This document shows positions 2,524-54,422 of a DNA stretch of 64,000 nucleotides, one piece after another. The position numbers and the translations under genes are program-made. The DNA is from a virus. The notes beneath the pieces are model-generated. The model was not told the DNA's origin. It made no database searches and was given only the letters and a program-made list of their open reading frames with translations. The DNA lies in the IMG/VR virus record IMGVR_UViG_3300031788_000005, positions 19,068 to 83,067 of that record. One strand, given 5' to 3'. How positions within the stretch are numbered: the stretch's first letter is position 1; each line of letters opens with the position of its first letter.

Positions 2524-4077
2524 TTCCTATCCTCGTCTAAAATCATCCCACTCACTGAGCCACCACTACTTTCCATGTACTGAAATTTAGCTTCGGGGTA
2601 TTGTTTAATCAATTCTTTATACCTATAGTAGTTGCCCAGTGTCGGCTTTTCATCTTTGTAAACAACATCAGTCATAACCCCCATCCAATAACCATTCTTG
2701 GGGAATTCCCTACCCTTCGACAAGACGACAAAAGTATACAACTTATCCCGAACGTCCACGCCAGTGTCACTGAACAAAGCATCACTATTACTATGCCAGC
2801 CGCCATGAAGTTCAAAAGTCGTTCCGTCTACCAAAGGAAACGACAATGTGGCACCACCAAATCCAGCCATACTATCTTTGGAATTAGAAGTATTTTTGGG
2901 GTTATTAGTAACATACACATTCGACGCCGCGTCATCTTCGGTCGAAACTAACCAAGTATTACCACTTTTGCCGATATACTTGTTGTATTTGTGGGAGACG
3001 GCTTCGGCTTGTCCTGAGAACGCTCCCTGAGATTTAATTGTATAATCGCTCATATAAGTAACATTACCACGTTTTGATTTGGAAGTCAAGCACCAAAAAA
3101 TTCATCTTGGCATTTTTGGCACAAACCACTCAGCTTTAATTCTTTAAGAGACAATTCGTCTCGAAAGGTCGTGGCATCAATCGGCATAAGACAGAAGGGG
3201 CATTTACCGCTTTCAACATCCTTGACTTGTTGGTCGAATCCGGCAGATTTCATTATTTGTTTGTTCATGGTTTATGCCTTAGTTTTTCTAACGCTTCACA
3301 AAACTCATTTAATTGTTTGGCAGTTACATTCGTACTGGCCCCACTTCCCATAAATGACAAAACTACCACATCGTCATCTATAATTTTGTTTTCCACCAGA
3401 AAGTATTCGGCGGAAACAAATGCCCACCACGTTGCAATGGGAGAGAATTTTTCTAGTAAATGTTTGTTCATAAATCTTTGTGTAAGGAAACTTAAGACAT
3501 TTCATCGTGACTTCCGCGAGACAGAGTACTTCCAGCATAAAGTCGTTTAACACACTGACAAAGATTAGTCGTATCTACTCGACCTAGGTGGTTCATATAT
3601 TCTAGTGTAAAACCTTTTGGAGTTAGTTTAACAACCTTAGCCTTCACCAAACCCTTATAACTCGGCGGGTTAATGGCGACTTCATCACCAACGAAAACAG
3701 GGTGGCCGAATATGTCTAGTTTATGGTTCATATTATTTTAAGTAAATTTGCATTTTTGTTTTGAGATATTTCAATTTCTCAATATCTCTTCGAACGGCAG
3801 TTTGGCATTCGACGGCTGTACTGTTATAAGACTTCTGACGATTAAGCGTATCAAAATTAGTTTCAATGCGAAATATAAGTTGTCCTAATTCGTCAATAAT
3901 GGTTTCGTTTACAGTCATAAATTTTAAAATGTGGACAAAATTAACACCCGAATGTCATTTCTTAACGAAGCTTGAAATAAAAAGGCGCATCGGCGTCCGT
4001 CCAGTTTACCCCGCGTTTTCGTCTTGCCTTTCGGCGTCCACAAAAATAAGATTAGCAGAAGATTCAATATAAGTCAA

Positions 4078-5088
4078 CTACTTTTTTGAATCGTAGTGTT
4101 TATTAATGACCTTAAAACTTCCACCGTTTTTAAGCTTAATGACAACTCCCTCAAACGGCTGGCCGTTAATTTCGGTTAATTCTTCGTCATACTTTTTAAT
4201 TAATTCTGGAGTCAAAATAACACCCTTTTCCAACATTGGAACAGTTTCAATATTAAGTATTTCAGCTACTTTTTCATAGTAGAATAAACCTTCTGTACCC
4301 TCATAATTTAATGTGTCTAAATTTAAAACACTAAATAAAGCAAAACCCAATGGCAACTTCGCATGAGGATTTACCGGACCTGCCTGAATTCCACCCCCGT
4401 AAATCTCGCCACGAAGAGCAAGATTAACTTTAAATTTATTACAGAAATGAGTAAGTTTATTTAAAATGTCTATTTTTTTGGCAATTATAGTATAATTATT
4501 TACTGCGTCCAATTTCAAATCCATAGAACGAGTTGTAATACCAGTATCATAATGGTAATCCCAATCGGCGGTTTCTAATTCTAGCGTCTTCTCCTTACAA
4601 TAGGCAGTCAAACTACTACCGTCAATTTTCAGAGTCACATCAACAATTTCACCATAAGGAATATTAAGAAGATTCTGGTATCTTTCCTCGTCAGACTTAA
4701 AAATTCCGTGGGGTAGATTACCTTTTGCATCAAGATTTTGAGGAAGAGGGGGTTCATAATGCGTTATCCCCAAAATTCCAGAGACTTCATATCCTTCTTC
4801 AGCCAAAAATGTGTTATATTGAATGATTGACGGGCTTTCGACAATACCCATCGAAAAAACACCCCTTAACTTTATGGCTCGAACCCGACTAGACTTTGCC
4901 TTGTAAAATTTAGCCCATTCTGCGTCAGGTAAGACTGTATCTGGGGAAATAAACACAACCAAATCTTCAACCTTAAATTGGTTTCGCTTTACGATTACTT
5001 GGTAATTTAGCACCGTTACGATGGAAAGAAACTCACCGTTAGGATGGTCAATGATTGATTTAATTTTTTCAATACTTGCTAGTTTCAT
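4078..5088 (-). CDS. RNA ligase, Rnl2/DRB0094 family
   Basis: N-terminal KLASIEKI..HPN, motif I KIDGSS, RGEIYG, EGVVIK, FKVIN. Confidence 0.9.
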   Translation of the reverse strand: MKLASIEKIKSIIDHPNGEFLSIVTVLNYQVIVKRNQFKVEDLVVFISPDTVLPDAEWAKFYKAKSSRVRAIKLRGVFSMGIVESPSIIQYNTFLAEEGYEVSGILGITHYEPPLPQNLDAKGNLPHGIFKSDEERYQNLLNIPYGEIVDVTLKIDGSSLTAYCKEKTLELETADWDYHYDTGITTRSMDLKLDAVNNYTIIAKKIDILNKLTHFCNKFKVNLALRGEIYGGGIQAGPVNPHAKLPLGFALFSVLNLDTLNYEGTEGLFYYEKVAEILNIETVPMLEKGVILTPELIKKYDEELTEINGQPFEGVVIKLKNGGSFKVINKHYDSKK

Positions 5089-5236: not shown

Positions 5237-7002
5237 AAAATCATACTATCAAACTATTCCGCAGAAGTCAACTCTTTTTAGGCAGATTGTTTGGCTAAAT
5301 AAATTAAATAATACAACCATTTAAAACTATCATCTTGTTCAAGAGTGGGATTGCAATCGGGACATTTCCTCATTTGTAGTAGAGAGTCCGCGATACTCAT
5401 TTCCGCTTCTTTTATTTTAAGAAGTCTTTTTTGTCTGGGCGTTTTAAATTTTTTCATGACTTTTTTCGCGGCTTTTTAGTTGGCTTCTTGGGCGCGGGTT
5501 TGAGTGTTTCTTTCTGGAACTCAGCAAAGTCTTTTAATTCTTTTTCGAGTTTGGCTTTATTTTTCTGTTGGTCGGAGAATTTTTTCTTTTGTTCGGCAAA
5601 TAGTTTGTGGAAAATTACTTTTTGTTCGTCAGCGGTTTTATAAAGTCCTGCATCTGAGTAACATAGGTAAGTACGTAGGGGCACTTGTTTCTCAATATCC
5701 GTACCTTCTTGGTGACACAAAATCACCGGCCCAAGAAGTACTGAGTCGTTTTTGGCATCGGGGTGCATTGTAATAGCAACACAATTGTCATCCCTCAACT
5801 TTTCAAGCGTCTCAATTAATCGTACCCCACACTCATATTGCTGACAAATTATATCTTGTTCAGCATTGAATTGGTCAAGTTCTACCCTAGCAGAAAAGTT
5901 TACTCCATTCAAAATGTATACTGGCAATTTTAAATCATTGGCAATCATAAATAAATTCTAAATCTTTTTTACTTGAGATAGATATACACTACACATATCA
6001 CCCGTCAAGATATTTTTCACATTTAAATAGCGGAGTTTACCGCCGAATTTAACAACCTCAGTCACTTGACCCTCAAAATCTTTCTCAAAGGTATCGTTTT
6101 CAGTCTTGAAAACAAAAACCTTATCAAAGACATGGAACCCGTCTAAATTAAGTTCAAATTGTGGGCTAATAAATTTCATACGACAACGTCAAATTCTCCT
6201 CTGACCCACCTTACTGGCGGAATAAACTCGTCAGGATTTTCTGATTCAATTAAGTAAGTGTCATCCTTTGCACGAAATTCAGTAATTACGCCGACGAAAT
6301 CCTTGAAATTTCCCACAAGTATCCTGACGCGTACCCCGATTGGAAATAGGTCTTTCATTCGGTTAAATACTCCCTTTTCTGAATCCACACTTGGTCTAAT
6401 ACCAAGTTTTCGTCTTCCTGCTTGGCAATTTCCCATCGCGGGTCAAGACGAATAAGAGTATCAGCGTCTTTATAACTCACTAATTGAGTGTCCAAAATGC
6501 GGTAGGGTTTAAATAATTTGAGATAGATTTTGCGGAACATAGTTTTTTTTAGTTTTTGTTTTGGTGTTGATTGCAGCCGAACCATTTTTCGGTTATAATT
6601 TCTTTGCCATTTGTGCCATATGCTCCGAAAGTCATTTCTCGGGAAGCGCCACAGTACATTTCGTCACTAGGATTTTTACTTTCTCCAAAGTGGCTATCTG
6701 GAATGTCAGTCCAGAATTTGCAAGTTGAGCAGGTTTTGTCCATGTTTAAATCCTAACAGAATATTTGTTTTGTGTCAACAAAAATTACCACTTAATTTTC
6801 CCGCCACGATTACGAGCCTTAATAATACGTGTATTTTCTTCCTTCGAAAGCCTGTTTAGTCTTTTTTGGCGGGTTTCGGGTGTCTTGTCGTATTCAGGTA
6901 TGTGGGTGGTGAGGTTAAGTAAAAGACTGCGTTGGAAACGTAGCTAGTTCGTCGTAAAAAATATACGAAGCCGTCTTTCCGCGAATTGGGTCTGAGGGAT
7001 TA

Positions 7003-21114: not shown

Positions 21115-21540
21115 TTAGTCATAACGTGTTTGGTTTATTAGGTTGGGTATTTCAATTGGTAATTTTGATTTTAATTTGTCTTCAATTTTCTGGAAACTGG
21201 GAGGGACACCACGTCCATTATTCATCCAGTCTTTCATTTCCATTTCTTGCAAATAATCTTGGGCGGTAGGAATAAATTTTCCTCGAAAATCTTCTGCTAC
21301 ATGCTGTTCACCAATATCACGAACAGATATTTTTTTATTTTCCGAATTAGTAATTGTAACTCCAAAAATTTTTTCAAGTATGAAACTCAAAAACCAAGAA
21401 TTATGAGTCAAAGCACGGTGACGATTGTCACAAATAGCTCCTTTTGAACTATCCATAAGATTATGAATTTCAATGTAGTCTTCAGGAACACCGCCAAAAC
21501 GTTTGGCGGAAGATACTGCATGTATGTATGGTTTACTCAT
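21115..21540 (-). CDS. DUF6915-like protein
   Basis: PYIHAVSSAKRFGG.PEDY..IH..MDSSK, HRALTHN, EQHVAED. Confidence 0.7.
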   Translation of the reverse strand: MSKPYIHAVSSAKRFGGVPEDYIEIHNLMDSSKGAICDNRHRALTHNSWFLSFILEKIFGVTITNSENKKISVRDIGEQHVAEDFRGKFIPTAQDYLQEMEMKDWMNNGRGVPPSFQKIEDKLKSKLPIEIPNLINQTRYD

Positions 21541-21541
21541 A

Positions 21542-22051
21542 TTAAACTTCACATTCCTTTTCTGAAATCATACACTTAATACCCAATTCCTTATCAAACC
21601 ACCTAGCCGCAACCCCTGCTTCATTAAACATAATCATACTGCGGTCATCATGACCATTCCACTTTTCACCCTTAATTTTATCCCACAAGTTTTCCCATTG
21701 TTTGTGTAAAACAATTTCTGTAATTCCGGCTTGAATAATTGCACGAGCGCAGTCCGTACATGGAGTAGAGTTGGTATACATTATAGAACCAAAAGTCTTA
21801 ATTCCATTACGGGCAGCGTTGTATACTGCATTGCGTTCGCCGTGCTCAAACCAATAATATTTTTCAGGTCGTTTATTTCTTTCTGTAGCTTTATCGTTAA
21901 CTTTACGACAGATTCCATTGTAACCCTCTGAAACTACACCACCGTCTTGAACAAGAATAGCTCCTATTTGGGTAGAAATATCTTTGCTTTTGGAGCCAAT
22001 TAAATAGACGTGCCTCATAAAAAGCTCGTCCCAAGATGGAATAGGTATCAT
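21542..22051 (-). CDS. dCMP deaminase
   Basis: SKD.STQIGA, GYNG, HGERNA, PCTDCARAIIQAGI. Confidence 0.92.
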   Translation of the reverse strand: MIPIPSWDELFMRHVYLIGSKSKDISTQIGAILVQDGGVVSEGYNGICRKVNDKATERNKRPEKYYWFEHGERNAVYNAARNGIKTFGSIMYTNSTPCTDCARAIIQAGITEIVLHKQWENLWDKIKGEKWNGHDDRSMIMFNEAGVAARWFDKELGIKCMISEKECEV

Positions 22052-22922: not shown

Positions 22923-23315
22923 TCATAGTTCTGGATTGCCTTCTATAACACCCGTATTTGGAATAACATGATAAGCACGGTCATCAACAAAATGAGTAAA
23001 ATAATACATCTTCAAACAAGTAATCTGCAATGTTTCCGGCAACCCGTTCTCTTTGAGAAAATTTTGGATTTTTTGAATTTCTACTTCTGATGTAGTTTGT
23101 GAATGAGAAAGTCGCGCTGTAAAAATAGAAACTTTATAACCCTTTTTAAGCCACTCTTTGACTTTACTAACCATATATTTAACAGGTTTACCTACCTTAT
23201 TACCCTGAGCTTCCCAACTATCGTAATGAGCAATTACTCCATCAAAATCAAGTGCTATATACACTTCCTTATGAGCCTTCTCTGGGTCTGGGATTTCTAT
23301 TTCTATTTTTGCCAT
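22923..23315 (-). CDS. HAD-family phosphatase (polynucleotide 3'-phosphatase-like)
   Basis: DFDGVI, FTAR, K...FVDDRA. Confidence 0.8.
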   Translation of the reverse strand: MAKIEIEIPDPEKAHKEVYIALDFDGVIAHYDSWEAQGNKVGKPVKYMVSKVKEWLKKGYKVSIFTARLSHSQTTSEVEIQKIQNFLKENGLPETLQITCLKMYYFTHFVDDRAYHVIPNTGVIEGNPEL

Positions 23316-23692
23316 AAAAGTATATTAATCTATCTTTCCGTCTTTGTCAACAACAATCATCCTACGATAATCTGATAATTGCAATTAGGACAGGTTATAT
23401 AAGTATAAGTATCGGTATCACCAGTGTAGTCCGTGTGTATTTTTGTGAAAGTATCCACGGGCATGTATTCAAGCAGTGCGCCACAATTACGACAAGTACA
23501 CTGTTTGACTAATTTTTTGTCTGGTTCTTTGTTTATAATTTTAATAGGCATAAATTTATAATGAGTTACGGAAGGGCTTCCATCTTCAGGTAGTTATCGG
23601 CCATGTATGCATCCATGCGCTGTTATTGCTTTTATTATTATAATCTTAAATCTAGATTACTGTGCAGTTGTGTTTCTGCCAATCGCTCGAAA

Positions 23693-23861
23693 TGGTGGAG
23701 CAGGAGAGTCAACACGCTTTTGGACTTACGCGCCTACATTTGGCGCAACCTTGGCTAAAAGTCGTTGCCTTTTGTGTCTGCTGTCGTCTTGCGGTGTCCC
23801 GCTATCGTAGTAACAGACTTCTCCGATTAACTTGCTTCTCCCCGCTTTAAACGGGATGCTC
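23693..23861 (-). ncRNA. 169-nt CCA-ending tRNA-mimic-like RNA
   Basis: GGAGCA...TGCTCC-ACCA acceptor-like stem enclosing several hairpins. Confidence 0.55.
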
Positions 23862-24237
23862 CGAAAATTTTCAATCTACGGAAGTGTTTTACTTCCCATA
23901 GACACCCCAACAACGCCACTAACAGAAATAATGGCAAAAATAATACAATCAAAAAAGTTGCTAACAATATTATTGGTATTTTTTTTTATATTTTCTTTTG
24001 ATTTGATTTGTTGTTTAAAATTATTTGGGGAAAAATTAACTAATGTTATACAGATAATCATTAAAATGAGAATAACTAAACATACGACACAATATAACGG
24101 CCAGCCTAATGACATTATTATTAATGATAAAATCGCAAGTGGAGACCGTTGTCTATCTGCTTTATCTAATATGCTTTGAAGCCAAATAAAGAAGGTACAA
24201 AATAAAAAACATCCAGCAAAGTAAAGGTATAAAAATA

Positions 24238-25071
24238 TCATAATTTCTTAAAAGTAATTTTAGAGTCATTTGCTATTGGCGCATAACGATACGCCGTTGT
24301 ATGAGGTGAATAAATAGTAATATCCTTAACATTAGCAAATCCAGCTAGGTGAGCTATTAAAGAGTCTGTCCCAATAAATCTGTCTGTTAATTTTAGTAAC
24401 TCAATAATAACGCCAAGTGGTAATCCGAAATAATATCTAGTTGAGAATATTGGGGCGTGAGACTTCTCTTCTTCTTTTGAGCCGACAACAATAGGATAAA
24501 TTTTGTCTTTCAACCACAAGTTACTAATTACGTCGTTAATAATATTTTGACCCATTTTTCTTTTTTTACCTTTAGAAAATGGATGAATAACTGCAAAGGA
24601 GCCACGCAAATGATTTTTTATTTTTAAAGCCTGAACTTTATCTTCTAAAGAAGTATATAAATCGCAAGGATATTTATTTCTTGGAACCCCTAAATCATCG
24701 CAAATTCTTTCAATCTTATGTTGGGCGTTATAGGAATTGGTTAGGTTATAAAATATTTCTGGCATGGTTTGAATCTCAGAAAGGATTACTTCGTCATATC
24801 CAACCTGCTTCCATTTTTCTGCCAAAAATATCATCTTTAAAAATCCAAAACCGAGATAATAAACAAAAGGATTCCAATATTTTGGATTTTTTCCAAAAAA
24901 CGAATACACTTCATTAATATTGGGGTTTTCTTTAAAAATCCAGCGACAATCATCCAATACGAGAAGGTCAATTATGTCATTGGGATGCATTTCGCGATAT
25001 TTTTTTAAAACACCCGTAAGCATGACACAATCACCCATACCGTGAAGGAAAATTATTAAGGTTTTTTTCAT
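24238..25071 (-). CDS. glycosyltransferase family 9 (heptosyltransferase-like)
   Basis: HGMGDCVM, NPNINEV, IHPF, FIGTDSLIAHLA. Confidence 0.85.
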   Translation of the reverse strand: MKKTLIIFLHGMGDCVMLTGVLKKYREMHPNDIIDLLVLDDCRWIFKENPNINEVYSFFGKNPKYWNPFVYYLGFGFLKMIFLAEKWKQVGYDEVILSEIQTMPEIFYNLTNSYNAQHKIERICDDLGVPRNKYPCDLYTSLEDKVQALKIKNHLRGSFAVIHPFSKGKKRKMGQNIINDVISNLWLKDKIYPIVVGSKEEEKSHAPIFSTRYYFGLPLGVIIELLKLTDRFIGTDSLIAHLAGFANVKDITIYSPHTTAYRYAPIANDSKITFKKL

Positions 25072-34983: not shown

Positions 34984-35793
34984 ATGAATATTCACGCTCA
35001 CCCAACGAAGAAAATTGGCGTTTTGCCTCGTCCAGCACACGTTAAAACCTGTAAATTAGCCAATTATTTAAATATTGGGATGATTCCAACTCCCCCCGCA
35101 TCTTATGATTGGGGTACGACCGCTCCAAATTCTCTTCAAATGTTCATGAATGATTCCATAGGTGACTGCGCGGTAGCAGCTTATCTTCATCACAAAGAAA
35201 CAGTTTTGCAAACTGCTGGTTTGGGAGTTTCATTTCTTGACCCTGTTGCTTTGGAAGTTTATGAATGGGCAACAGCCGATGAAAATGGCGGACAAGGATA
35301 TAATCCAAAAGCAGGTTCTGGCGATAATAATCCAACCGATACTGGTTTAGTACTAGTGAGTTTTTTGGAAGATTTAAGGACTCGTGGATTGATTTATGCT
35401 CATGCCGAAGTTAATTTAAATAATGCCAAAGAAGTTGCAGCCGCGCAATATTTATTTGGTGGACTTTATGTGGGAGTTGCACTTCCTGTTTTTGTTCAAA
35501 ATCTTCAGAATCTTTGGTATATTCCAACCACCGCTCAAAACTTAGGAGACCCAACAAAAGGAAGTTGGGGCGGGCATTGCATTTATACTCGTGGAATTAC
35601 GCCAACGACTGGAAATACTATTTTAACGAGTTGGGGAGAAACTATTCAAGCAACTCCACAATGGATGCAAACTTATCAGGATGAGGCTCATATTATTGTT
35701 CATAAGCATTCAGCCGCAGCTTTTGATAAATTAGCTAGTGCTAATTTTGGAATTAATGACCTTATTGCCGACCTAAATGAAATAAAAAAATAA
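34984..35793 (+). CDS. papain-like cysteine peptidase-like protein
   Basis: NDSIGDC (catalytic Cys), GGHC, LTSWG; start set after the GTGTAAT motif. Confidence 0.65.
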   Translation: MNIHAHPTKKIGVLPRPAHVKTCKLANYLNIGMIPTPPASYDWGTTAPNSLQMFMNDSIGDCAVAAYLHHKETVLQTAGLGVSFLDPVALEVYEWATADENGGQGYNPKAGSGDNNPTDTGLVLVSFLEDLRTRGLIYAHAEVNLNNAKEVAAAQYLFGGLYVGVALPVFVQNLQNLWYIPTTAQNLGDPTKGSWGGHCIYTRGITPTTGNTILTSWGETIQATPQWMQTYQDEAHIIVHKHSAAAFDKLASANFGINDLIADLNEIKK

Positions 35794-35807
35794 TTAGATA
35801 TTTCTAC

Positions 35808-35855
35808 TTAAATTTTATTATTTATTAAATTGGTAATAGAGTATATTCCAGTCAT
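35808..35855 (-). pseudogene. GIY-YIG N-terminal relic (MTGIYSITNLINNKI*)
   Basis: GTGTAAT-7nt-ATG, then the GIY motif and a premature stop. Confidence 0.6.
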
Positions 35856-35885
35856 ATACTATATTACACTGTTTTACGTTTTTTA

Positions 35886-36111
35886 GCCGATATTTTGTGT
35901 TAATCTGACATTTTTCTCACTAACTGGATGTGGCGATGTGTTAATAATCGCTGCCCAAACCCGCTCTCAATGGAAAACATTATCCTCAAGCTGTTTTGGT
36001 TGCATCTACCTTTTGGTACAAACGAGTTTTTAAGACTCTCCCATGGCTGTTTTGATGTATCGAACTTCCTCTAATATAGGACTTTACCCATATCAGCGTC
36101 AGAATATTAAC
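35886..36111 (-). ncRNA. candidate minimal RNase P RNA-like element
   Basis: P3-like hairpin then GAGGAAGTTCGATACATC; GATGCAACC; P15-like CCAAA/TTTGG; distal AAAAATGTCAGATTA. Confidence 0.45.
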
Positions 36112-37138
36112 GTAATAATTCAATTTACACCATCCATCAAAATTTGTCAATTATTATCTTCAATATTATCTCCCCACCAAAAAACATCCGATTTGCTACC
36201 AAAGAAATTAGCTCCACCAAGTTCTATACTTAATTGCAAATTAGTATTATAGGTAAAATTAAAATAAGGAGGCATTTCATCTACTTGTAATGTTACAAAA
36301 ATACACTTCTTGGGGAGTTTATATGATGCAGAATTAATCGTTATTGGCGTTTGAATCATGCCGTGATTTAATGCTACGCGGCAGGTCTCGCGGAGACCAT
36401 CCAAATATCCCTGCTCATAAGTATGTTTCGGGTCAACGGTTGTTTTGCTACATCCCGCAAATAGCAGGACGGCAATTAGTAGTATTATATTTTTCATATT
36501 TATTTTTTAATCATGAATTTTTTAATGCGTTTTAAAAAAGCATCCAGATTTTCATTTTCTTTTACAATGTGGTCGTGGTCGTAATATGCTCCGTCGCCCT
36601 TGGTATTAAAATCTAATTCTTGGACTTCACAAGGAATATTCGAAAATTTCAGGAATTCTTTTATACCTTCAAATTTGTAAGAGAGTTTAGTATGATAATC
36701 GTCTCCTTCATCAAACTTTTTTCCGTCAACAAAAATGATGTAATACGCATCATATGACACATCCAATGTTACTAATGTTAATTTCATAAAATTATTATTT
36801 TCAAGGAATTTTTAAATCGAATTTAGGTACTTTTACGTTTTTATCAGGCTTTAATTTTTGTTGGTGTATTTTGGATAATTTTTCTCTCAATTCATAAACC
36901 TCTAATGCCAAACCAATTACCAGATTATCTCCCACTAAATCACGCCATTTTTCGCCATACCTTAAGGCTTCACCACCGCCATTTTTCCAATGTTGGACAG
37001 TATATTTTCCATCGCAGATAGTCACTTCCCAATCAATTTCTTTTTCGGTAACGGGTTCCCATGGACTTGGACTGACTATACATCCACATTTAAAAGTCTC
37101 TGGATTAACAATTTGTTTACAACGTTTGCATTTCCATT

Positions 37139-41870: not shown

Positions 41871-41957
41871 TGGCGGATAATTACCCTCCTGCCGAGTAAA
41901 CCTTTCGGTTCGCACCGTTTTCGAAACGGGCCTAGAAACTTTTCTAGTTAATTATCC
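41871..41957 (-). tRNA. tRNA-Ser(CGA)
   Basis: CCGT-TTCGAAA-ACGG, long variable arm, GCCA. Confidence 0.85.
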
Positions 41958-43486: not shown

Positions 43487-43571
43487 TGGTCGCAATGGTG
43501 GGACTTCCACCCACAAAGGTCGGAGATTTTAAGTTTCCATGCTCTTGTATTCGCTGTCAACCCACATTGCG
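43487..43571 (-). tRNA. tRNA-Leu(TAA), short variable loop and enlarged D region
   Basis: CGCAATG/CATTGCG-ACCA; loop CTTAAAA. Confidence 0.65.
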
Positions 43572-43742: not shown

Positions 43743-43818
43743 TGGTTGTCGTGACAGGTGCCGACCCTGCTAAATTCTCCATGTAAAGGAGATAATCATG
43801 CCGATGATACTCACGACA
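43743..43818 (-). tRNA. tRNA-Val(TAC)
   Basis: TCTCC-TTTACAT-GGAGA. Confidence 0.8.
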
Positions 43819-43824
43819 GTAAAA

Positions 43825-43899
43825 TGGATGCCTGTGATGGTGCTGCCCCATCGCCTCGACTTTCAGAGAGTCGCGAACTACTGTTATTCAGAACAGGCA
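43825..43899 (-). tRNA. tRNA-Gln(CTG)
   Basis: CGACT-CTCTGAA-AGTCG; U1-A72. Confidence 0.85.
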
Positions 43900-44446: not shown

Positions 44447-44522
44447 TGGTGCATCCTGTCGGAACTGCCCCGACATCCCATTCCTTAAGAGGGAAGGCTC
44501 TATCTCGCTGAGTTAAGGATGC
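44447..44522 (-). tRNA. tRNA-Lys(CTT), second copy with an Arg-like body
   Basis: TTCC-CTCTTAA-GGAA; GCATCC acceptor; GATAGAG D-loop. Confidence 0.75.
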
Positions 44523-44791: not shown

Positions 44792-44866
44792 TGGTCCCAG
44801 TAGAAGAAATTGCATCTTTAACTCCGAATGACTTATGAAATCACCGTTCCACTCTGGATTACTGGG
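44792..44866 (-). tRNA. atypical tRNA(CAT), Met/Ile2
   Basis: CCCAGTA/TACTGGG-ACCA; GGTGAT-TTCATAA-GTCATT; very small D arm. Confidence 0.55.
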
Positions 44867-44871: not shown

Positions 44872-44947
44872 TGGTGGACATTTCGTGTTACGCTCACGAC
44901 TTTCAACTTTTTCAGAGTTGCACTTTCACTAGATTAGTTTAATGTCC
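44872..44947 (-). tRNA. tRNA-Phe(GAA)
   Basis: CAACT-CTGAAAA-AGTTG. Confidence 0.85.
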
Positions 44948-45498: not shown

Positions 45499-45588
45499 TG
45501 GTCGGTCTGCGGCGTAACGCTCGCCGTCTAGCTTATTAGGCAGTACCTGCGCCCAAGGCAGGTGGGTTCACTTTTTCCCTACAGACCG
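45499..45588 (-). tRNA. tRNA-Pro(TGG) with long variable region
   Basis: CGGTCTG/CAGACCG-ACCA; CCTGC-CTTGGGC-GCAGG. Confidence 0.8.
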
Positions 45589-46528
45589 ATAAATTTGTTT
45601 TTCTAAAAATCAATTGATTTGAACCCAGAAAATCGGCCACAGATTTAGCTGCTGTTAGTTCGTCATTAAATCTTTTTGAAAATTGTATTTTTCCTTGTTT
45701 TTTAACATTAGCAATCCATTTATTCCTAGACGAACTAAACGAAACATAAAGATATTTAGATGGAAAAACACGACTTATAGGTGTGATTTTTTTAATCCTG
45801 TTTCGTCTTGAAAATCTGGAAATATTTTTCCAATCTATGTTATAATAGACGCACCATTTACGTAGGGTATTATCACTTATATTATATTGTTTAGCAATAG
45901 TTAAAATGGGATGTATCTTAATTAGAGCAATCAAATCCTCTTTGGATGGTCTTCTCTGCTTTCTTCGGTTTTCATTAGAGCAAATAGCACATATATCATT
46001 GTTAGAGTATCCTTTTGATGGTTTCCCACACTCCTTACAAAAATAATATTTTTTATGTTTTTTCCCTGCAAATGTTGATGTCTGACTATGACAATTTGGA
46101 CAAAGAAATTCAAGATTTTCAATTCTATCATCGTCAGAAACTCCATTTTTATGTTCTAATTGTAAGGAAAGTTTCAAATTATTCCATTGTCCTTCATTTG
46201 AGCACTTTGAGCATTTATAAGGCAATAAATTAAATTTAATTAAATATTTTTTAGTACTTACGCGTTTGTGTGGAGAATGTTCCACTAATCTAGTTAAAAA
46301 CTCGTCCTTTGAAACTTCTTTAGTTAATATCGAAGAATGAAGTCTGTTTAGAAAATGGGAAGAGTCTATATTTAGTTCCTTAATTCTATTTTTACAGGTT
46401 ACATAGTTTCCACCTTTATTTTCCATCCCAAAAAACTTTAACACTTGGGACATTGTTTGGCTTGTAAGAATTAGTTTCTTAAAATCTGGTTCTGGATATG
46501 ACCATATGATACTTGTTCTTTTTCGCAT
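45536..46528 (-). CDS. HNH homing endonuclease with HTH and AP2-like C-terminal domains
   Basis: C..C...W....L.LQLEHKNG...D.R.ENL.FLCPNCHSQT; start MRKRT after GTGTAAT. Confidence 0.88.
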   Translation of the reverse strand: MRKRTSIIWSYPEPDFKKLILTSQTMSQVLKFFGMENKGGNYVTCKNRIKELNIDSSHFLNRLHSSILTKEVSKDEFLTRLVEHSPHKRVSTKKYLIKFNLLPYKCSKCSNEGQWNNLKLSLQLEHKNGVSDDDRIENLEFLCPNCHSQTSTFAGKKHKKYYFCKECGKPSKGYSNNDICAICSNENRRKQRRPSKEDLIALIKIHPILTIAKQYNISDNTLRKWCVYYNIDWKNISRFSRRNRIKKITPISRVFPSKYLYVSFSSSRNKWIANVKKQGKIQFSKRFNDELTAAKSVADFLGSNQLIFRKTNLSVCREKVNPPALGAGTA

Positions 46529-46584
46529 ATAGTATATTATACACGAATAATGGTGAACTATGAAGTAGGGGTTCGATATAAATT

Positions 46585-46668
46585 TGGCAGCCCCGATTCG
46601 ATTTGCACGAATGATGTTTATATTTCGGTTCCAAAGACCGACGCGTTCGACTACTCCGCCACGGGGCA
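46585..46668 (-). tRNA. tRNA-Gln(TTG) with long variable region
   Basis: TCGGT-CTTTGGA-ACCGA; G73. Confidence 0.8.
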
Positions 46669-46954
46669 ATAAAATTTCGGGAGCAACGTGTTACTAAACT
46701 AATCTAGTAGACATGACCCCCATCACCATAAAGGTGAGAAGTAAATTAATCTTGTGGAAACAAAAATTTCGCAAGAGAATCGTTATGCTCGTTGACGATT
46801 GTGTTAGCGTGGTCTGGCCACATTGCTTTTCCGAGAGTTACTTCATCTGGAAATCCAAGACATTTAACAACGTCCGCAACATCGTAATCAGTACCGCGTT
46901 TAACGATTCGAACGCCCCATTTGTTATGACGGAAATATTGGTCGTTGGTCATCT

Positions 46955-47458
46955 TTATTTTTTAATAGGAAATTCCAAACAAACCTCTCCTCTATCAGAA
47001 TAGTATGCTCCATCTGTAATTGACGCCTTAGATTTGTAAGCTTTTTTCTTGGAACGGTCATTCAAAAACTCAGCCAAGCATTTTTCATTATGTAAATGAT
47101 ATTGTTTATCTATCCCATCTGGACCTTTTAGGGTAGCAGCAATGGAATCTTCCTTGTCGTCTTTATCTTTGGTGTCGATTGGACGTTTACAGTTGTCACA
47201 AATTGTTTGGATTTTTGCCTCAGCAGTATAAGAAGCGACTGCACTTTTTTGAGTTTCCATTTTCTTGTTGATAAACGACGCCATACAAGCCATATCACAA
47301 AATTCATGTTGTTTTTTATAAGTGGCACCATTTGCTTCTGGCTCGCTAAGAAGAGCAACAGATATGTTTTTATGACCTTCTGGATAATGTTGGCCGAGTT
47401 CAGCGCCGCATTGGTCACACGCAACTACTTGTCTCGCGAAAGATTCTAAATTATTCAT
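46955..47458 (-). CDS. tandem Zn-finger (TRASH/YHS-like) protein
   Basis: CDQC...HEFCDMAC and CDNC...HLHNEKC; start MNNLES after GTGTAAT. Confidence 0.55.
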   Translation of the reverse strand: MNNLESFARQVVACDQCGAELGQHYPEGHKNISVALLSEPEANGATYKKQHEFCDMACMASFINKKMETQKSAVASYTAEAKIQTICDNCKRPIDTKDKDDKEDSIAATLKGPDGIDKQYHLHNEKCLAEFLNDRSKKKAYKSKASITDGAYYSDRGEVCLEFPIKK

Positions 47459-47536
47459 ACAACAAGTATTACACGCAAAAATACCCAAATAAAAAGAAAA
47501 AATCATACATTATTACCATTTTTGTGCATAATATAT

Positions 47537-47634
47537 TGAATTGAAAATGATACCGACTAACCGTTTTAGCCGTCCTTATGTGCTCCTAAGAAGAGTGTCT
47601 CTGTTTATCAGTTTCAATTCACCATAAGGGCGGT
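47537..47634 (+). promoter_or_regulatory. pseudoknotted 5' UTR, copy 2
   Basis: TGAATTGAAA/TTTCAATTCA crossed with GCCGTCCTTATG/CATAAGGGCGGT, ending 4 nt before the ATG. Confidence 0.55.
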
Positions 47635-47638
47635 AATT

Positions 47639-48322
47639 ATGATTTTTAACGACCTGCCAAAAACCTTCGGAATATATAAATTTACCAACAAAATAAATGG
47701 TCGCATCTATATTGGTAAGTCTAATAATCTTCGGTATAGAATAAAACACCATTTAAGAAAAAGTGCTAATCAAGTAATAGATAGAGCTATAAAAAAATAT
47801 GGATTAGATAATTTTGATATTGAAATTATTGATACATTTGAAAATATTGACAATACGGAACTTCTAGCTTTAGAGACTTCGTATATTGAATATTTTGAAT
47901 CTTTGGTTGGTCAAAATGGATATAACATTTGCCTGTTTGGTTTGAATAATACAGGGTGTAAAGTTTCAAATGAAACTAAATATAAAATAAGCATCGCACA
48001 TTTTGGAAAAAAACTTTCTCAAGAACATCGTCGTAAAATTAGTTTAAGTAGTTTGGGTAGAAAGGCTTCGGAAGAAACAAAAATCAAAATATCCATATCC
48101 CGTTTAGGAGATAAAAATCCTAATAAAAAATGGAAAGCCTATGGAAATCCGACTTTTAACAAAAACATATATCATTTCCAAAACCGAATAACTAATGAAA
48201 CTTTTACCGGCTATCAATATGATTTTTATACAAAATACAATCTACGCTCAACAAATGTAAATAGAATTATAAGTGGTAAAGACAAATCATTTAAAAATTG
48301 GATATTTTTAGGCCGTCTTTAA
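47639..48322 (+). CDS. GIY-YIG homing endonuclease with NUMOD3 repeats
   Basis: GIYKFTNKINGRIYIGKS, AIKKYG, GYN, S.ETK.KIS repeats. Confidence 0.92.
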   Translation: MIFNDLPKTFGIYKFTNKINGRIYIGKSNNLRYRIKHHLRKSANQVIDRAIKKYGLDNFDIEIIDTFENIDNTELLALETSYIEYFESLVGQNGYNICLFGLNNTGCKVSNETKYKISIAHFGKKLSQEHRRKISLSSLGRKASEETKIKISISRLGDKNPNKKWKAYGNPTFNKNIYHFQNRITNETFTGYQYDFYTKYNLRSTNVNRIISGKDKSFKNWIFLGRL

Positions 48323-48850
48323 ACTAAGATTTTTCCTACCCACTTTGTCTGGCAGCGAGTATAAAAGAGAGTTAACTGAAAATTTTTCTCCCTTTAAACC
48401 TTCGTGACCATCCAACTCCTTGTGGCTACCCTTTTTAACGTATGCTAGGGTGGCATGAGCATGATAAATTGGATAAGTTGTTTGAATTGAATTTTTAAAT
48501 TTGTCTTTTAAAGCGTAGTGAAGTTTTTGAGCATCTGGACTAATTACTTCAGCCTTTAAAACATCATAATCTGGACATTCAAAACGGCTTACAGAGCCTA
48601 ATTCAAAAGCTATAGATTCTTGATTTTCCAGAAAAGCTTTAAGTGGTTCAGTTTCAAAATCAGGGTCAAAACCATAAAGTACCGTTACATGATACTCGGT
48701 CTCTTTGCCATCTCCCGCAAGATTACTATCAGAAATATGTTTGTCGCTAAAAGTAGTGAGTTTTTGTGACAAATCTTTGCTAATCATCGCCATTAAACAG
48801 CCCTTGGAAACTCCCTCCTTGGCGTAGGCCAGTAAATCAATTATTATCAT
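48308..48850 (-). CDS. 2H phosphodiesterase (T4 gp57B/Acb1- or LigT-like)
   Basis: Two HxT motifs: HVTVLYG and HATLAY. Confidence 0.8.
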   Translation of the reverse strand: MIIIDLLAYAKEGVSKGCLMAMISKDLSQKLTTFSDKHISDSNLAGDGKETEYHVTVLYGFDPDFETEPLKAFLENQESIAFELGSVSRFECPDYDVLKAEVISPDAQKLHYALKDKFKNSIQTTYPIYHAHATLAYVKKGSHKELDGHEGLKGEKFSVNSLLYSLPDKVGRKNLSLKTA

Positions 48851-48858
48851 ATATTATT

Positions 48859-49173
48859 TTACACTTTTAATAGCGGAAAATATTGAAAACATTCAGGCCA
48901 GTCAACGCGGGGACAAAAAACAATGGCAATTTCTTGATTATTTAAATTCGATTCGGTAACGATAACGTAGTCTTTTTGAGTCTTTAGCATTTCGAATTCG
49001 ATATCCCTTACTTCAACAACTACCTTGCGAAAAGACTGGGAGAGCCACTCTTGATAAACGGGGTCATTCCCGAATTTAAGATGCGCCATTAAAACGCCGT
49101 GTGCTGCTCCCAAAACTTTATGAGAAGGAAGGGACTTCTTAATACAGATGTACATTTTTAGATTATTTTTCAT
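48859..49173 (-). CDS. peptidyl-tRNA hydrolase, Pth2-like
   Basis: KMYICIK, AAHG, W....FRKVV, C-terminal F.PR...F..L. Confidence 0.75.
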   Translation of the reverse strand: MKNNLKMYICIKKSLPSHKVLGAAHGVLMAHLKFGNDPVYQEWLSQSFRKVVVEVRDIEFEMLKTQKDYVIVTESNLNNQEIAIVFCPRVDWPECFQYFPLLKV

Positions 49174-49424
49174 ATCAGCGTCAAACCAGTTGGGTCTTTT
49201 AAAGCTTTTACTAAATTTCTGGCTGAGTTTCTAGCATCTTTGCGAGTAGGGATTCTCAAGCCTTCAAGGACACTGCCTTTAGGAAAATGGGTAAGACCTT
49301 TGTATGGATTTTTTTGATTTGATTTCATAAAATTTTTGCTGGAAGTTAGTGTCCAGCGGCACTGATGCAATTCGCCTATGCAACTAAGCTGGCCGATTAC
49401 TAACTCATCGGACCACTCGGAGAT

Positions 49425-49500
49425 TGGTATTGCCGACCAGAGTCGCACTGGCTAGGAATAGCTTGAAAGGCTACTTACTCCACTCTTTGTATTCAGCAAC
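49425..49500 (-). tRNA. tRNA-Glu(TTC)
   Basis: GTAGC-CTTTCAA-GCTAT. Confidence 0.75.
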
Positions 49501-49505
49501 ATAAA

Positions 49506-49886
49506 TTATTTTTTATCCTCATATAGAGTGACGTAATTCTTTCCATATTTTTTGATTGTGTAATCTAGAAAAGGCTTCATGTCTTTTTGGAAAATTACTT
49601 TGAGTTTTCCCTTAAATTGTGAAATTTTTTCTTTATTTTTAGGGGTTAACCATCCTTTTATCTCCACATATTCGTCGTTAATTTTAAAATCGGGATAAAA
49701 TTTAAATGTTCTGCCTTCAAAAACATAATCAAATCCAAAAGTATTTCTTGTAAATAAAATTCCATGTTCGATATTGTAAATAACCCAAGCCAATTCCCAA
49801 GAACTATTACAATAATAACCTTTATACCAACCCATGTGGCCCCGGCCAGCCTTTTCCCTGTATCCTCCGCGATTAGAATAATCCAT
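49506..49886 (-). CDS. PD-(D/E)XK endonuclease (TnsA-like), probably 5'-truncated
   Basis: SSWE, YPDF, VEIKGW; an in-frame KFCSREC Zn-finger remnant upstream runs into the tRNA. Confidence 0.75.
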   Translation of the reverse strand: MDYSNRGGYREKAGRGHMGWYKGYYCNSSWELAWVIYNIEHGILFTRNTFGFDYVFEGRTFKFYPDFKINDEYVEIKGWLTPKNKEKISQFKGKLKVIFQKDMKPFLDYTIKKYGKNYVTLYEDKK

Positions 49887-49981
49887 TCCCTTCCGTGTGC
49901 ATTCACGGGAACAAAATTTTCGTTTACCGTCAAAATAATCAGCAAACCTTTTGTGACAATAATGATTTTGATTGATAATAT

Positions 49982-50057
49982 TGGTAGGGTTAGCTGGTTT
50001 TGCGCCAATGCGTTTAAACTTTGAGAAAGTTTCGTGCTACTATTACACCATAACCCC
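49982..50057 (-). tRNA. tRNA-Glu(CTC)
   Basis: AAACT-TTCTCAA-AGTTT; bulged T stem. Confidence 0.7.
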
Positions 50058-50059
50058 AT

Positions 50060-50097
50060 AAAAAAGCCCGCGTTGCTACTTTTACACTATACTGCTA
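50060..50097 (-). pseudogene. orphan 5' half of a tRNA (TTT-like loop)
   Basis: AGCAGTA-TA-GTGTAAAAGTAGCAAC-GCGGG-CTTTTTA, then directly the next tRNA. Confidence 0.4.
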
Positions 50098-50184
50098 CAT
50101 TAGTCTAGCTTCTTTGTCCTCGACGGACGCCATTTAATGCAACTGTGTATTCGGTATTGCGCCGAATCCTCGGGACGATTGATA

Positions 50185-50252
50185 GCCAGTGTGCTGCCGC
50201 TGCACCAATACCGGCGAGGCCGGTATGTGGGATTCGAACCCACGTCTCTGAC
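50185..50252 (-). ncRNA. circularly permuted tRNA domain (YrlA/Y RNA-like)
   Basis: GTCAG, GTGGG-TTCGAAT-CCCAC, ATACCGGC-CTC-GCCGGTAT, GTGC-AGCGGCA-GCAC, CTGGC. Confidence 0.8.
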
Positions 50253-50328
50253 ACGATTGGACACCAGTGATTCATTAAAGAATTCTCCAAGTTAAAGGCT
50301 TGGCATGTTTCCATAGGCTGGTGAAATT

Positions 50329-50418
50329 TGGTGCAACCGGAGGGACTCGCACCCACGATGGAGCTATTAGCTCACAAGATTAAAAGTCTTGTCCTTTCGC
50401 TGCTAAGGGAACGATTGC
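50329..50418 (-). tRNA. tRNA-Lys(TTT) with a type II-like variable arm
   Basis: CAAGA-CTTTTAA-TCTTG; GAGCT-AAT-AGCTC arm. Confidence 0.8.
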
Positions 50419-50425
50419 ATTAAAT

Positions 50426-50503
50426 TGGTAGCGCAAGTGGCTTGAGGAACCACAACCTATCCCCTATCAAGGGAGTACTCTTACTCATTTGAGTTACTGC
50501 GCC
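50426..50503 (-). tRNA. tRNA-Ile(GAT)
   Basis: TCCC-TTGATAG-GGGA. Confidence 0.8.
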
Positions 50504-50521
50504 ATAAATTAATTAACTCTT

Positions 50522-50631
50522 TGGTTGTTTTCGGACGACTACTCTTGATGCCTCTCAAGTCGATTCAGACGTTACGGATTCAAAGTCCGTCACAACCTGT
50601 CTCTGCCCCGTCTATGCTATTCGAATAACAT
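50522..50631 (-). ncRNA. enlarged tRNA-like RNA with a Gln(TTG) anticodon hairpin
   Basis: ACGGA-CTTTGAA-TCCGT; TGTT-A-TTCG/CGAA-AACA-ACCA. Confidence 0.45.
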
Positions 50632-50658
50632 ATTCAGCCTCTTTTCCGTGAGTTAAAA

Positions 50659-50732
50659 TGGTGGGGTGTATAGGAATCGCACCTATGTTACGAAAGTGTC
50701 ATTCTCGTGTCCTAACTACTAGACTAACTCCC
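50659..50732 (-). tRNA. tRNA-Val(GAC)
   Basis: CGAGA-ATGACAC-TTTCG. Confidence 0.7.
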
Positions 50733-50737
50733 CGAAA

Positions 50738-50800
50738 TTGGTGAGTCCCAAGTTTCTAAACTTGGCCAGTCTCCTATTCGAAGAATGGCTTTTAAGACCC
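50738..50800 (-). ncRNA. approx. 63-nt mini tRNA-like RNA
   Basis: GGGTC/GACTC-ACCA, CCAAG/CTTGG T-like arm, one further hairpin. Confidence 0.45.
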
Positions 50801-50806
50801 ATAAAT

Positions 50807-50886
50807 TGGTCGCGGCGATGGGTACTGCCCCCACACGAATATTCCGATTAAAAGTCGGCTGCACGTTCTTTGGTAGCTTCACCGCG
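50807..50886 (-). tRNA. tRNA-Lys(TTT), second copy
   Basis: CCGA-CTTTTAA-TCGG. Confidence 0.75.
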
Positions 50887-50892
50887 AAAAAT

Positions 50893-50966
50893 TGGTTCCG
50901 AACCTTGGTAACGCTCCAAGTCTTAATGGGTAACAACCATTTGTGCGACTTTCACACTCGTAGGGA
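50893..50966 (-). tRNA. tRNA-Asn(GTT)
   Basis: AATGG-TTGTTAC-CCATT; mismatched acceptor. Confidence 0.75.
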
Positions 50967-51061
50967 ATAAAAAAAATCAATGCAAATAACCACACCTAGA
51001 TATTAGGCTACAAGTATATCGAGTCCTTGACGGCTCTTACGAAATCCGCCTTGCATTAAAT

Positions 51062-51149
51062 TGGCTCTAGAGGCTTGAGTTGAACAAGCAGTGCTTTTTA
51101 AAGCGGTGGATTAACAATCCACTGAGTTTACCAATTCTTCTACTCTAGA
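51062..51149 (-). tRNA. tRNA-Asn(GTT) with long variable arm
   Basis: GTGGA-TTGTTAA-TCCAC; GCTTT/AAAGC arm; G73. Confidence 0.85.
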
Positions 51150-51156
51150 ACCAATT

Positions 51157-51450
51157 TTACTTGCTGACCTCATTTTTGACTATACACTCATTTGCTGGGG
51201 AATTTAGCAGCGTGGCGTCCAAGCCTTTTATGTTCCCTCTATCTTATCACTAAGATGCAAAATTTACCCTAACGATTGAATAATTGCTACACGGCCAAGC
51301 TCATAATCGCATTATGAAGTATTAACGACAAATCTCCTTCTCTATGTGCGTTTTTAAAATGGACGAAAACGCTGACTACTTACGATATACCCTTTGGGGC
51401 CGTCGTCCCATGGGCTAGGGAATTAATTCCCGCAATGACAGACCAAGTAA
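51157..51450 (-). ncRNA. approx. 294-nt unknown structured RNA
   Basis: TTACTTG..CTG/CAG-CAAGTAA closing stem; several hairpins; no ORF. Confidence 0.5.
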
Positions 51451-51494
51451 ATTAAATTTTTGTCTTCACTACATTTCAAGTGTAATAACAATAT

Positions 51495-51902
51495 GTGAGA
51501 GAAAAAATATTACAATTACGAAAAGAAGGTAAAACATTCAGAGAAATACAAAAACTTGTTCCATGTAGCGCATCAACAGTTTGGTATCATTGTGGAAAAG
51601 GCGCAAAGGAAAAACATAGAAGACAAAAAAGGAAAAACTATGCTCGTATTCAAATAGAGATAAAATCTCACTTCGAAGGAAAATGCAAAATTTGTGGATA
51701 TAATAAATGTTTGTCAGCTCTGGAATTTCATCATCTCGATTCCTCTAAAAAGGAAAAAACAGTATCTAGGTTTATCCAAGCTGGTTCAAAAAGTAAAGCC
51801 TATAAAGAAGCAGAAAAATGTATTCTAATATGTGCTAATTGCCATAGAGAATTACATGAAAACGAAAAGCTTATTCGCCATCCTACAATGACAGACCATT
51901 AA
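51495..51902 (+). CDS. HNH endonuclease with N-terminal HTH
   Basis: CKICGYNKC.SALEFHH.D, C.LICANCHRELH. Confidence 0.85.
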   Translation: MREKILQLRKEGKTFREIQKLVPCSASTVWYHCGKGAKEKHRRQKRKNYARIQIEIKSHFEGKCKICGYNKCLSALEFHHLDSSKKEKTVSRFIQAGSKSKAYKEAEKCILICANCHRELHENEKLIRHPTMTDH

Positions 51903-51983
51903 TTTAAAACAGTTTCGCCTCCCTATAACACTATAGACTTTATTTTTTCTTAACCAGCGCGATTGCTGGTGAGGTTACTAAAT

Positions 51984-52058
51984 TGGAGCACTTGGGGAAT
52001 TTTGAAATCCCGACGTTCACTTTGGAAGAGTGACACTCTGCCTCTGAGTTACAAGTGC
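51984..52058 (-). tRNA. tRNA-Gly(TCC)
   Basis: TCACT-CTTCCAA-AGTGA; U73. Confidence 0.9.
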
Positions 52059-52063
52059 ATAAA

Positions 52064-52136
52064 TGGATGCAGCGATTGGGATTGCACCAATGGAGTTCGT
52101 CTTATGAGGGCGAATTGAATACTAATTCTCACTGCG
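52064..52136 (-). tRNA. tRNA-Met(CAT), initiator-like
   Basis: C1:A72 mismatch; loop CTCATAA. Confidence 0.7.
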
Positions 52137-52219
52137 ATAAAAAATGGTCGTAAAAACTATTAAAGTAATCTCAAAAATCATCTTTCTCTTTGAGTTTACT
52201 TTTGTGTATCTATTAATAT

Positions 52220-52744: not shown

Positions 52745-52746
52745 AT

Positions 52747-52822
52747 TGGTCGCTTTCACAAGACTTCTTCCTTGTATTTCCAGCCTCATTGCTGGTGTCC
52801 TAGAATTTTAGACGATACGGCG
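52747..52822 (-). pseudogene. degenerate tRNA-like gene
   Basis: D and T arms and CCA present, but a 6-nt anticodon loop and broken acceptor. Confidence 0.5.
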
Positions 52823-52827
52823 ATAAA

Positions 52828-52903
52828 TGGTACAGGCGGTGGGACTCGCACCCACGAAAACTCCGCCCCAAACGGAGTGGCATAGCTACTAACCGACGCC
52901 TAT
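52828..52903 (-). tRNA. tRNA-Pro(TGG)
   Basis: CTCCG-TTTGGGG-CGGAG. Confidence 0.75.
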
Positions 52904-52974
52904 AAATTTTAAAATGTTAGTCCCATTTATTCTTTGACGAGAAAATAATGGTTCGGTACTCAACTAGCATAAAT

Positions 52975-53052: not shown

Positions 53053-53061
53053 ATTATAAAA

Positions 53062-53138: not shown

Positions 53139-53144
53139 ATAAAT

Positions 53145-54421: not shown

Positions 54422-54422
54422 A

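Follow-up and report, generated by a model that had tools for sequence, protein, structure and literature searches.

A candidate tRNA-like, CCA-ending RNA encoded far from the tRNA array of a phage from peat metagenomes

Does a 170-nt stretch that begins and ends like a tRNA gene, yet lies well apart from the tRNA array of its phage, encode a discrete RNA, and if so, of what kind? The stretch is found on the minus strand of a 64,000-nt window (the whole piece of DNA analyzed here), which covers bases 19068-83067 of an IMG/VR record of 83,067 nt, and every DNA run that contains it carries a peat metagenome label. The contig consists of short, tightly packed ORFs, predominantly on the minus strand, and its genes include rIIA, rIIB, an RNA ligase, thymidylate synthase, dCMP deaminase and homing endonucleases, with a tRNA array at ~41-55 kb on the minus strand (detected by ARAGORN and Rfam). 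The rIIA protein shares ~26-35% identity with its best GenBank matches and, judging from sequence, the phage is only distant kin of cultured phages.

The candidate RNA gene (23862 to 23693, minus strand; RNA position i corresponds to window position 23863 - i) occupies a 324-nt gene-free gap on the minus strand, compared with a median gap of ~76 nt in the contig. The gap is bordered by two ORFs of the same orientation, namely an upstream ORF (23876-24241), whose stop codon lies 14 nt before the candidate RNA, and a downstream 64-aa zinc-ribbon ORF (23357-23551). We found no credible small ORF within the gap, the frames present there being implausible (on the plus strand or 25 aa long). Measured to the nearest called tRNA (42576), the distance is 18.7 kb, and to the first T-arm-like hairpin of the tRNA region (41114) ~17.2 kb; the first-pass annotation, an earlier reading of the bare sequence, had given 17 kb to the array.

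A 130-aa ORF near the locus (22923-23315, minus strand) matches a phrog annotated "phosphoheptose isomerase," and a 277-aa orphan (24238-25071, minus strand) resembles, by eye from its sequence, a GT9 heptosyltransferase; the genes on either side thus look sugar-related. The relatives of the 277-aa protein are confined to its own cluster (95-100% identical), with strain variants of the gene at 95-96%, and the 64-aa protein has two distant relatives, so the immediate neighbors of the candidate RNA appear to be near-orphans. A DUF6915 (PF21866) protein at 21115-21552 (minus strand) is exceptionally well conserved, with 66-87% identity among the best 120 of more than 2,000 homologues, some of which (81-84%) lie on Logan/ENA contigs of 172-189 kb. 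Its relatives in GTDB genomes belong for the most part to Bacteroidota MAGs, which may hint at the phylum of the host.

Architecture of the candidate RNA

Read 5′ to 3′ on the minus strand, the candidate RNA has the form GGAGCA...UGCUCC-ACCA. The first-pass annotation had recognized this stem and its tail, and both are present (23862-23857 paired with 23702-23697, followed by ACCA at 23696-23693, minus strand); its length of 169 nt missed the first G, and the stretch actually spans 170 nt (23693-23862). Constrained partition functions assigned this acceptor-like helix, P1 (5′ strand GGAGCA, 23857-23862; 3′ strand UGCUCC with the encoded ACCA, 23693-23702; RNA 1-6 with 161-166), a probability of 0.81. 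Its 5′ strand leads into a T-arm-like hairpin, HP1 (UCCCG-UUUAAAG-CGGGG, 23840-23856), whose CCCG/CGGG pairing (RNA 8-11 with 19-22), also proposed earlier, reached 0.93. Although a T-loop had been denied, HP1 has the 5-bp stem, G-C closing pair and U-U-N-R-A loop that make up the T-arm pattern of this phage. It is followed by an A-rich single-stranded linker of 15 nt (23825-23839; RNA 24-38), which is unpaired in both the MFE and the centroid structure and occupies the place of the D-to-variable region of a tRNA.

A second helix, P2, pairs GGAGA (23820-23824; RNA 39-43) with UCUCC (23703-23707; RNA 156-160) with a probability of 0.77, and its 3′ strand runs directly into that of P1, as the T stem of a tRNA does. 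Inside P2 lie the P3 arm (23776-23818), composed of GUCUGUU/AGCAGAC (RNA 45-51 with 81-87; probability 0.77) and an inner GCGG-GACA-CCGC hairpin (GCGG/CCGC, 0.996), and the 3′ half of the body (23708-23775), whose fold is ambiguous. A single G-U pair in P3 favors the minus strand. The multibranch domain originally drawn for this region survives in part: GGAGA/UCUCC and the GUCUGUU/AGCAGAC arm are retained, and GCGCC/GGCGC, at 0.38, is one of the alternative pairings open to the 3′ half. Its GUC/GAC extension of P2 (0.01) cannot coexist with P3 because the same GUC is used in GUCUGUU/AGCAGAC, and GCAAC/GUUGC (0.007) is incompatible with GCGCC/GGCGC because the two share two bases. The domain as drawn is therefore internally inconsistent, with two helices reusing bases, and cannot form as a whole.

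Two stackings are open to P1 (6 bp) in the modeled fold. With P2 (5 bp) it would share a continuous 3′ strand, like that of the tRNA T stem; alternatively, P1 may stack on HP1 (5 bp including U7-G23) through a continuous 5′ strand and end in a T-loop-type loop. Either stacking gives an 11-bp stack ending in ACCA, one pair fewer than the 12-bp acceptor/T minihelix of tRNA. Unlike in a tRNA, ~110 nt (P3 and the ambiguous 3′ half) emerge at the position of the T-loop, and the T-arm-like HP1 comes after the 5′ acceptor strand, not ahead of the 3′ one.

The flanks are those of a tRNA gene in most respects. Upstream, GAAAAUUUUC (23863-23872, minus strand) carries ATTT 0-3 nt from the 5′ end, like the tRNA genes of the phage, and the base before G1 is a C, a position at which most phage tRNAs have U. 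Downstream, an adjacent 141-nt segment (23552-23692, minus strand) starts with UUU right after the CCA, as in a tRNA-like 3′ flank. The first-pass annotation had noted adjacent non-coding sequence here, and the segment is indeed non-coding; it folds no better than shuffles (z-score of -1.1), contains a promoter-like TGCACA-N18-TATAAT (23666 to 23637, minus strand) and is probably the ordinary promoter and 5′ UTR of the 64-aa ORF, outside the RNA. A further promoter candidate, TTGAAA-N17-TTTAAA, internal to the RNA and with a start near 23837, was rejected because the key A2 and T6 are missing from its -10 box. In closely similar metagenome contigs (L097-L103, three of them 380-400 kb long), a homologue of the 64-aa ORF (phrog_2834) lies at ~3881-4183, ~30 nt after a tRNA-Ser (GCU) that is the last of a 10-13-gene array, a position that only faintly suggests a link with tRNA genes.

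Evidence for a discrete RNA gene

The foremost alternative to a gene is that no discrete RNA is made here, that the helices arose by chance in a regulatory spacer (a promoter, UTR or DNA-level site) and that the CCA stem is a coincidence. Base composition argues against this: the candidate RNA has a GC content of 51.8% versus 36.4% in the window, and the gap that holds it (0.44) resembles the tRNA-holding gaps, whereas the other long gaps (≥200 nt) outside the tRNA region are mostly AT-rich, with GC contents of 0.26-0.34. So does folding, with an MFE of -54.1 kcal/mol and a z-score of -2.64 on the minus strand, on which 1 of 200 shuffles was as good; the complementary plus strand has a z-score of -1.65.

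Two features tie the stretch to the tRNA genes of the phage. The first is the T-arm pattern, drawn from the phage's own tRNAs and defined as a U[GU]NRANN loop on a 5-bp stem closed by G-C, which matched 17 times on the minus strand and 4 times on the plus strand. Sixteen of the minus-strand matches fall within 41.1-54.8 kb and the 17th is HP1; the chance of a match in a segment of the candidate's size is ~1%. The second concerns the flanks, since tRNA genes here typically have ATTT(N0-3) before and CCA(N0-2)TTT after them. When all sites with a 6-bp terminal stem and NCCA were scored for both motifs, 13 of 134 on the minus strand and none of 128 on the plus strand carried them; 12 of the 13 are tRNA-type array genes of 75-111 nt, and the remaining one is the candidate RNA. 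Both motifs occur at a random position with a frequency of 0.0053, and because ~0.6 chance sites are thus expected window-wide, which is a point for the spacer explanation, the flank test supports the candidate but cannot stand alone.

An encoded NCCA, present in all 11 ARAGORN tRNAs of the contig as well as in the candidate RNA, also speaks for a gene. The terminal stem is a poorer guide: a perfect 6-bp terminal stem with NCCA occurred in 12.6% of dinucleotide-shuffled gaps, and a 6+5 composite of the P1+P2 type in 1.4%. Moreover, the real window contains ~30 such composites per strand, the tRNA-free plus strand included, and the stem-plus-CCA cue alone is therefore not significant; that such sites arise often by chance favors the spacer explanation.

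Expression data come from one insert. The single matching contig of a peat metatranscriptome run (X24) has a 140-nt insert, 100% identical to 23698-23837 and bounded by Illumina adapter at both ends; the insert lies wholly within the candidate RNA and reaches to within 5 nt of its predicted 3′ end. The strand is not determinable from the contig, which shows no true ends, may represent PCR copies of one molecule and could derive from carried-over DNA; conversely, its missing cover of the flanks carries no weight as evidence. We take the insert as a supporting hint that falls short of proving a discrete transcript. Where DNA contigs from three peat runs cover the candidate RNA, they are identical to it in base sequence, which is uninformative. 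Within the contig, the candidate RNA is single copy, with no paralogue, and neither it nor its linker has an antisense target of at least 12 nt, 11-mers matching at chance level.

Homologues were sought by several routes across GenBank phages, IMG/VR, JGI metagenomes and GTDB genomes. No RNA homologue was returned by blastn against GenBank phages, by searches of IMG/VR with three RNA patterns (exact or degenerate), by way of neighbor proteins (the 277-aa and 130-aa proteins and rIIA) in IMG/VR, or by way of the 277-aa protein in JGI metagenomes with near-identical records masked. DUF6915, used as a synteny anchor, yielded 51 IMG/VR loci and 28 genome loci, none syntenic beyond 3 genes, in which blastn, nhmmer and a covariance model of the candidate (R1) found the window's own copy only. 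R1, run on ~1.5 Mb of loci, also found no homologue in 39 whole virus records or in the 5 cultured phages that best match it in rIIA. With filters off, it gave only noise (E ≥ 0.9) at the 25 metagenome loci with homologues of the 64-aa gene, most of which have no upstream gap, an ORF directly preceding the gene. A search with the tRNA T-arm pattern returned two contigs, both unrelated. Because no homologue was found, the candidate has no covariation or conservation support, and this failure is the main weakness of the case.

The spacer explanation gains from the missing homologues and from there being a single RNA-library insert. Against it, GC content, fold z-score, T-arm pattern (~1%), paired flanks (0.5%) and the X24 fragment all coincide on 170 nt, and we consider it rather unlikely. 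Since several features converge on the same 170 nt, we therefore credit the stretch as a real, processed RNA, which is very likely in our estimate; that estimate joins our best reading with the variants below in which the RNA is a decayed tRNA or a cis element. The earlier proposal of a tRNA-mimic RNA accordingly stands insofar as the RNA is very probably real, discrete and tRNA-related (by its flanks and the X24 fragment). The roles it suggested, as a decoy or as a substrate for aminoacylation or CCA addition, are conjectural, and because the CCA is genome-encoded, no such addition is needed to make the 3′ end.

Known RNA classes and remaining alternatives

With canonical tRNAs, and with the aberrant tRNAs of this phage, the candidate RNA shares an acceptor stem with a discriminator base and encoded NCCA, a T-arm-type hairpin and the flank motifs; it differs in its 6-bp acceptor stem, in its misplaced T-arm-like hairpin and in that its acceptor strands do not enclose a cloverleaf of D, anticodon and T arms. 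ARAGORN at default settings called neither a tRNA nor a tmRNA at the candidate, and Rfam 15 gave no match at gathering thresholds and none at E ≤ 10 on 901 nt; on a 186-nt stretch, its best match was GIR1 (9.8 bits, E 3.3), and no curated family claimed the RNA by covariance model. Together with the deletion scans, these searches bear out the first-pass annotation in that the RNA has no cloverleaf, is not a tmRNA and matches no known family. A tRNA with one insertion or intron was rejected because none of 7,347 derivatives with a single internal deletion scored as an ARAGORN tRNA at thresholds of 100%, 90% or 80%.

The resemblance to tmRNA (SsrA) lies in the 3′ end GCUCCACCA, in G1-C72, G2-C71 and the discriminator A73, in the absence of an anticodon arm and in a large insert between the acceptor strands. 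Nevertheless, tmRNA is ruled out on several grounds. AlaRS needs G-U at 3:70, whereas the candidate has A3-U70, as previously read; immediately 5′ of the acceptor 3′ strand, in place of a T arm, stands UCUCC, which pairs with the distant GGAGA; and there are no pseudoknots and no plausible tag frame. Furthermore, tmRNAs measure ~260-400 nt, compared with 170 nt for the candidate, and lowering the ARAGORN threshold to 60% produced noise only. The bacterial Y RNA-like YrlA is likewise an ncRNA in which a tRNA-like module, T arm included, is embedded, but its ends form a Ro-binding stem and its acceptor-like stem is loop-closed and not known to end in CCA, unlike the candidate, in which Rfam found no match.

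The nearest parallels in kind are RNAC (species 1) and RNAD (species 2) of phage T4, which, like the candidate, are phage-encoded and non-decoding and contain tRNA-like pieces, with lengths of 119-139 nt, and whose roles are still unknown (PMC3014915, PMC9697503). The T4 RNAs are stable, are made alongside the phage tRNAs and lie inside the tRNA cluster, whereas the candidate, for whose stability and processing with the tRNAs the tRNA-type flanks and the one X24 insert give indirect hints, lies 17-19 kb from the array. RNAC has a canonical T arm before the 3′ strand, in contrast to the T-arm-like hairpin after the 5′ strand of the candidate; as for RNAD, the DNA past its annotated end reads ...CACC|A. 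R1 found no match in the T4 tRNA region and the folds differ, with no detectable homology in sequence or structure, which suggests that the candidate RNA is like RNAC and RNAD in kind and not their homologue.

A second group of parallels concerns processing. Bacterial RNase P accepts non-tRNA helices with an RCCA tail, as in 4.5S RNA, tmRNA, M3 and C4 (PMC11143913). Pre-4.5S RNA, the M3 RNA of phage phi80 and the C4 antisense RNA of P1/P7 resemble the candidate in joining a helix to a 3′ RCCA-like tail; they are experimentally defined RNase P substrates, whereas cleavage of the candidate is inferred, and none of them has been reported with a T-loop hairpin beside the 5′ strand.

Among the explanations that accept an RNA, one holds that the locus was once a tRNA gene and has since decayed or been rearranged, being still transcribed and perhaps excised but without a function of its own. 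Such an origin would account for the retained T-arm-like hairpin and tRNA-type flanks and for the orphan status of the RNA, which has no relatives, in a phage whose tRNA set is aberrant in general. It could also appeal to a "tRNA-Phe" at 23832-23906, found by relaxed ARAGORN, which overlaps the candidate and takes the same hairpin, HP1, as its T arm. That pseudo-tRNA, however, has two acceptor G-A mismatches and no CCA and overlaps the end of the upstream ORF, and we treat it as spurious, at most a fossil. Decay would also erode both the GC-rich body and its better-than-shuffled fold, and no single internal deletion restores a tRNA, even at the 80% threshold. We regard a decayed tRNA as improbable.

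Another explanation is a cis-acting processing or stability element, at which an RNase P cut in a polycistronic early transcript would separate or protect messages. The position of the candidate between two co-oriented ORFs, 14 nt past the stop codon of one and far from the tRNA array, would suit such a role, and structures other than tRNA, in operon mRNAs as well as in phage RNAs, are known RNase P targets (PMC11143913). Yet the downstream gene seems to own a promoter-like site located after the candidate RNA, 170 nt of GC-rich structure far exceed the needs of a cleavage signal, and the X24 fragment represents the structured part itself. We regard a cis element as quite improbable.

The reading that we favor, and hold to be probably correct, is a discrete phage ncRNA gene of ~170 nt whose product would be a stable, tRNA-like RNA that matures as tRNAs do and, by analogy, is akin in kind to T4 RNAC and RNAD. 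Under this reading, the tRNA-maturation machinery would cut the RNA out of a longer read-through transcript, as the flanks in common with the tRNA genes suggest by analogy. With the ~11-bp acceptor stack and the RCCA end as guides, G1 would be the RNase P cut site, endo- and exonucleases would trim the 3′ end to the encoded CCA, and the excised RNA would accumulate as a stable RNA. The prerequisites for RNase P are present in the sequence (G+1, the 11-bp stack and the 3′ ACCA); further points against this reading are the stack of 11 bp, the T-arm-like hairpin on the "wrong" side and the C before G1. More tentatively, the mature RNA might show an acceptor/T-arm look-alike to tRNA-binding proteins, although it has no anticodon arm and cannot decode.

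A more specific form of the favored reading, and an improbable one, is a dedicated acceptor-arm mimic, a CCA-ended tRNA look-alike that does not decode and whose strand connection is reversed, with the T-arm-type hairpin on the 5′ acceptor strand. Host factors recognizing the acceptor stem and CCA end would be occupied by the RNA, or would modify it in place of tRNA. Its targets, which are speculative, could include CCA-pyrophosphorylating toxSAS effectors, acceptor-stem nucleases or a synthetase. If true, the RNA would be either a decoy that counters tRNA-targeting immunity or a charged RNA of a new kind.

Other RNA features of the contig and their significance

The contig contains a second CCA-ending RNA that is not a cloverleaf, a 111-nt RNA (54517-54627, minus strand) of the form GGGAGAU...AUCUCCC-ACCA. 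It lies in the array between tRNA-Leu(gag) and tRNA-Arg(tcg), shows the flank motifs of the tRNA genes and, by analogy, looks like a counterpart of T4 RNAC and RNAD. The phage would thus have more than one such RNA, as T4 has both RNAC and RNAD, which strengthens the parallel and supports the favored reading.

Nine further genes of 75-87 nt on the minus strand (41871-41957, 43487-43571, 43743-43818, 43825-43899, 44447-44522, 44792-44866, 44872-44947, 54814-54891 and 55147-55222) each combine a perfect 6-bp terminal stem and NCCA with flanks of the tRNA type and received no call from ARAGORN at default settings or from Rfam at the gathering score. Because these nine tRNA-sized genes went uncalled, the array is about twice the size reported by the detectors. 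Among the called tRNAs, many (45499-55371, minus strand) have the T-loops UGCGAGU or UGCGAUU, with G at position 55, and several with Lys, Asn, Pro or Gln anticodons measure 84-91 nt, apparently owing to long extra arms, which is unusual for these identities. A fully canonical T arm, GUGGG-UUCGAAU-CCCAC, is present at 50227-50243 (minus strand), in a stretch with no called tRNA.

Elsewhere in the window, a candidate for a minimal form of RNase P RNA (35874-36115, minus strand) drew no Rfam match to RNase P in 35600-36400, even at E ≤ 10. With the first 512 nt of the window set aside, 6744-7002 is the other long gap outside the tRNA region with a raised GC content (0.40); it contains a plus-strand T-arm-like hairpin (6927-6943) and may hold another small RNA.

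The aberrant tRNA set and the second CCA-ending non-tRNA indicate that the locus may belong to a wider remodeling of tRNAs by the phage. The candidate RNA combines clear tRNA-gene boundaries with a T-loop hairpin reversed in its connection and no decoding arm. It would also be a compact substrate for probing the recognition needs of RNase P, the CCA-adding enzyme, synthetases and tRNA-targeting defense toxins. A second case besides T4, unrelated to it, would make tRNA-like stable RNAs a recurring invention of phages rather than an oddity of T4.
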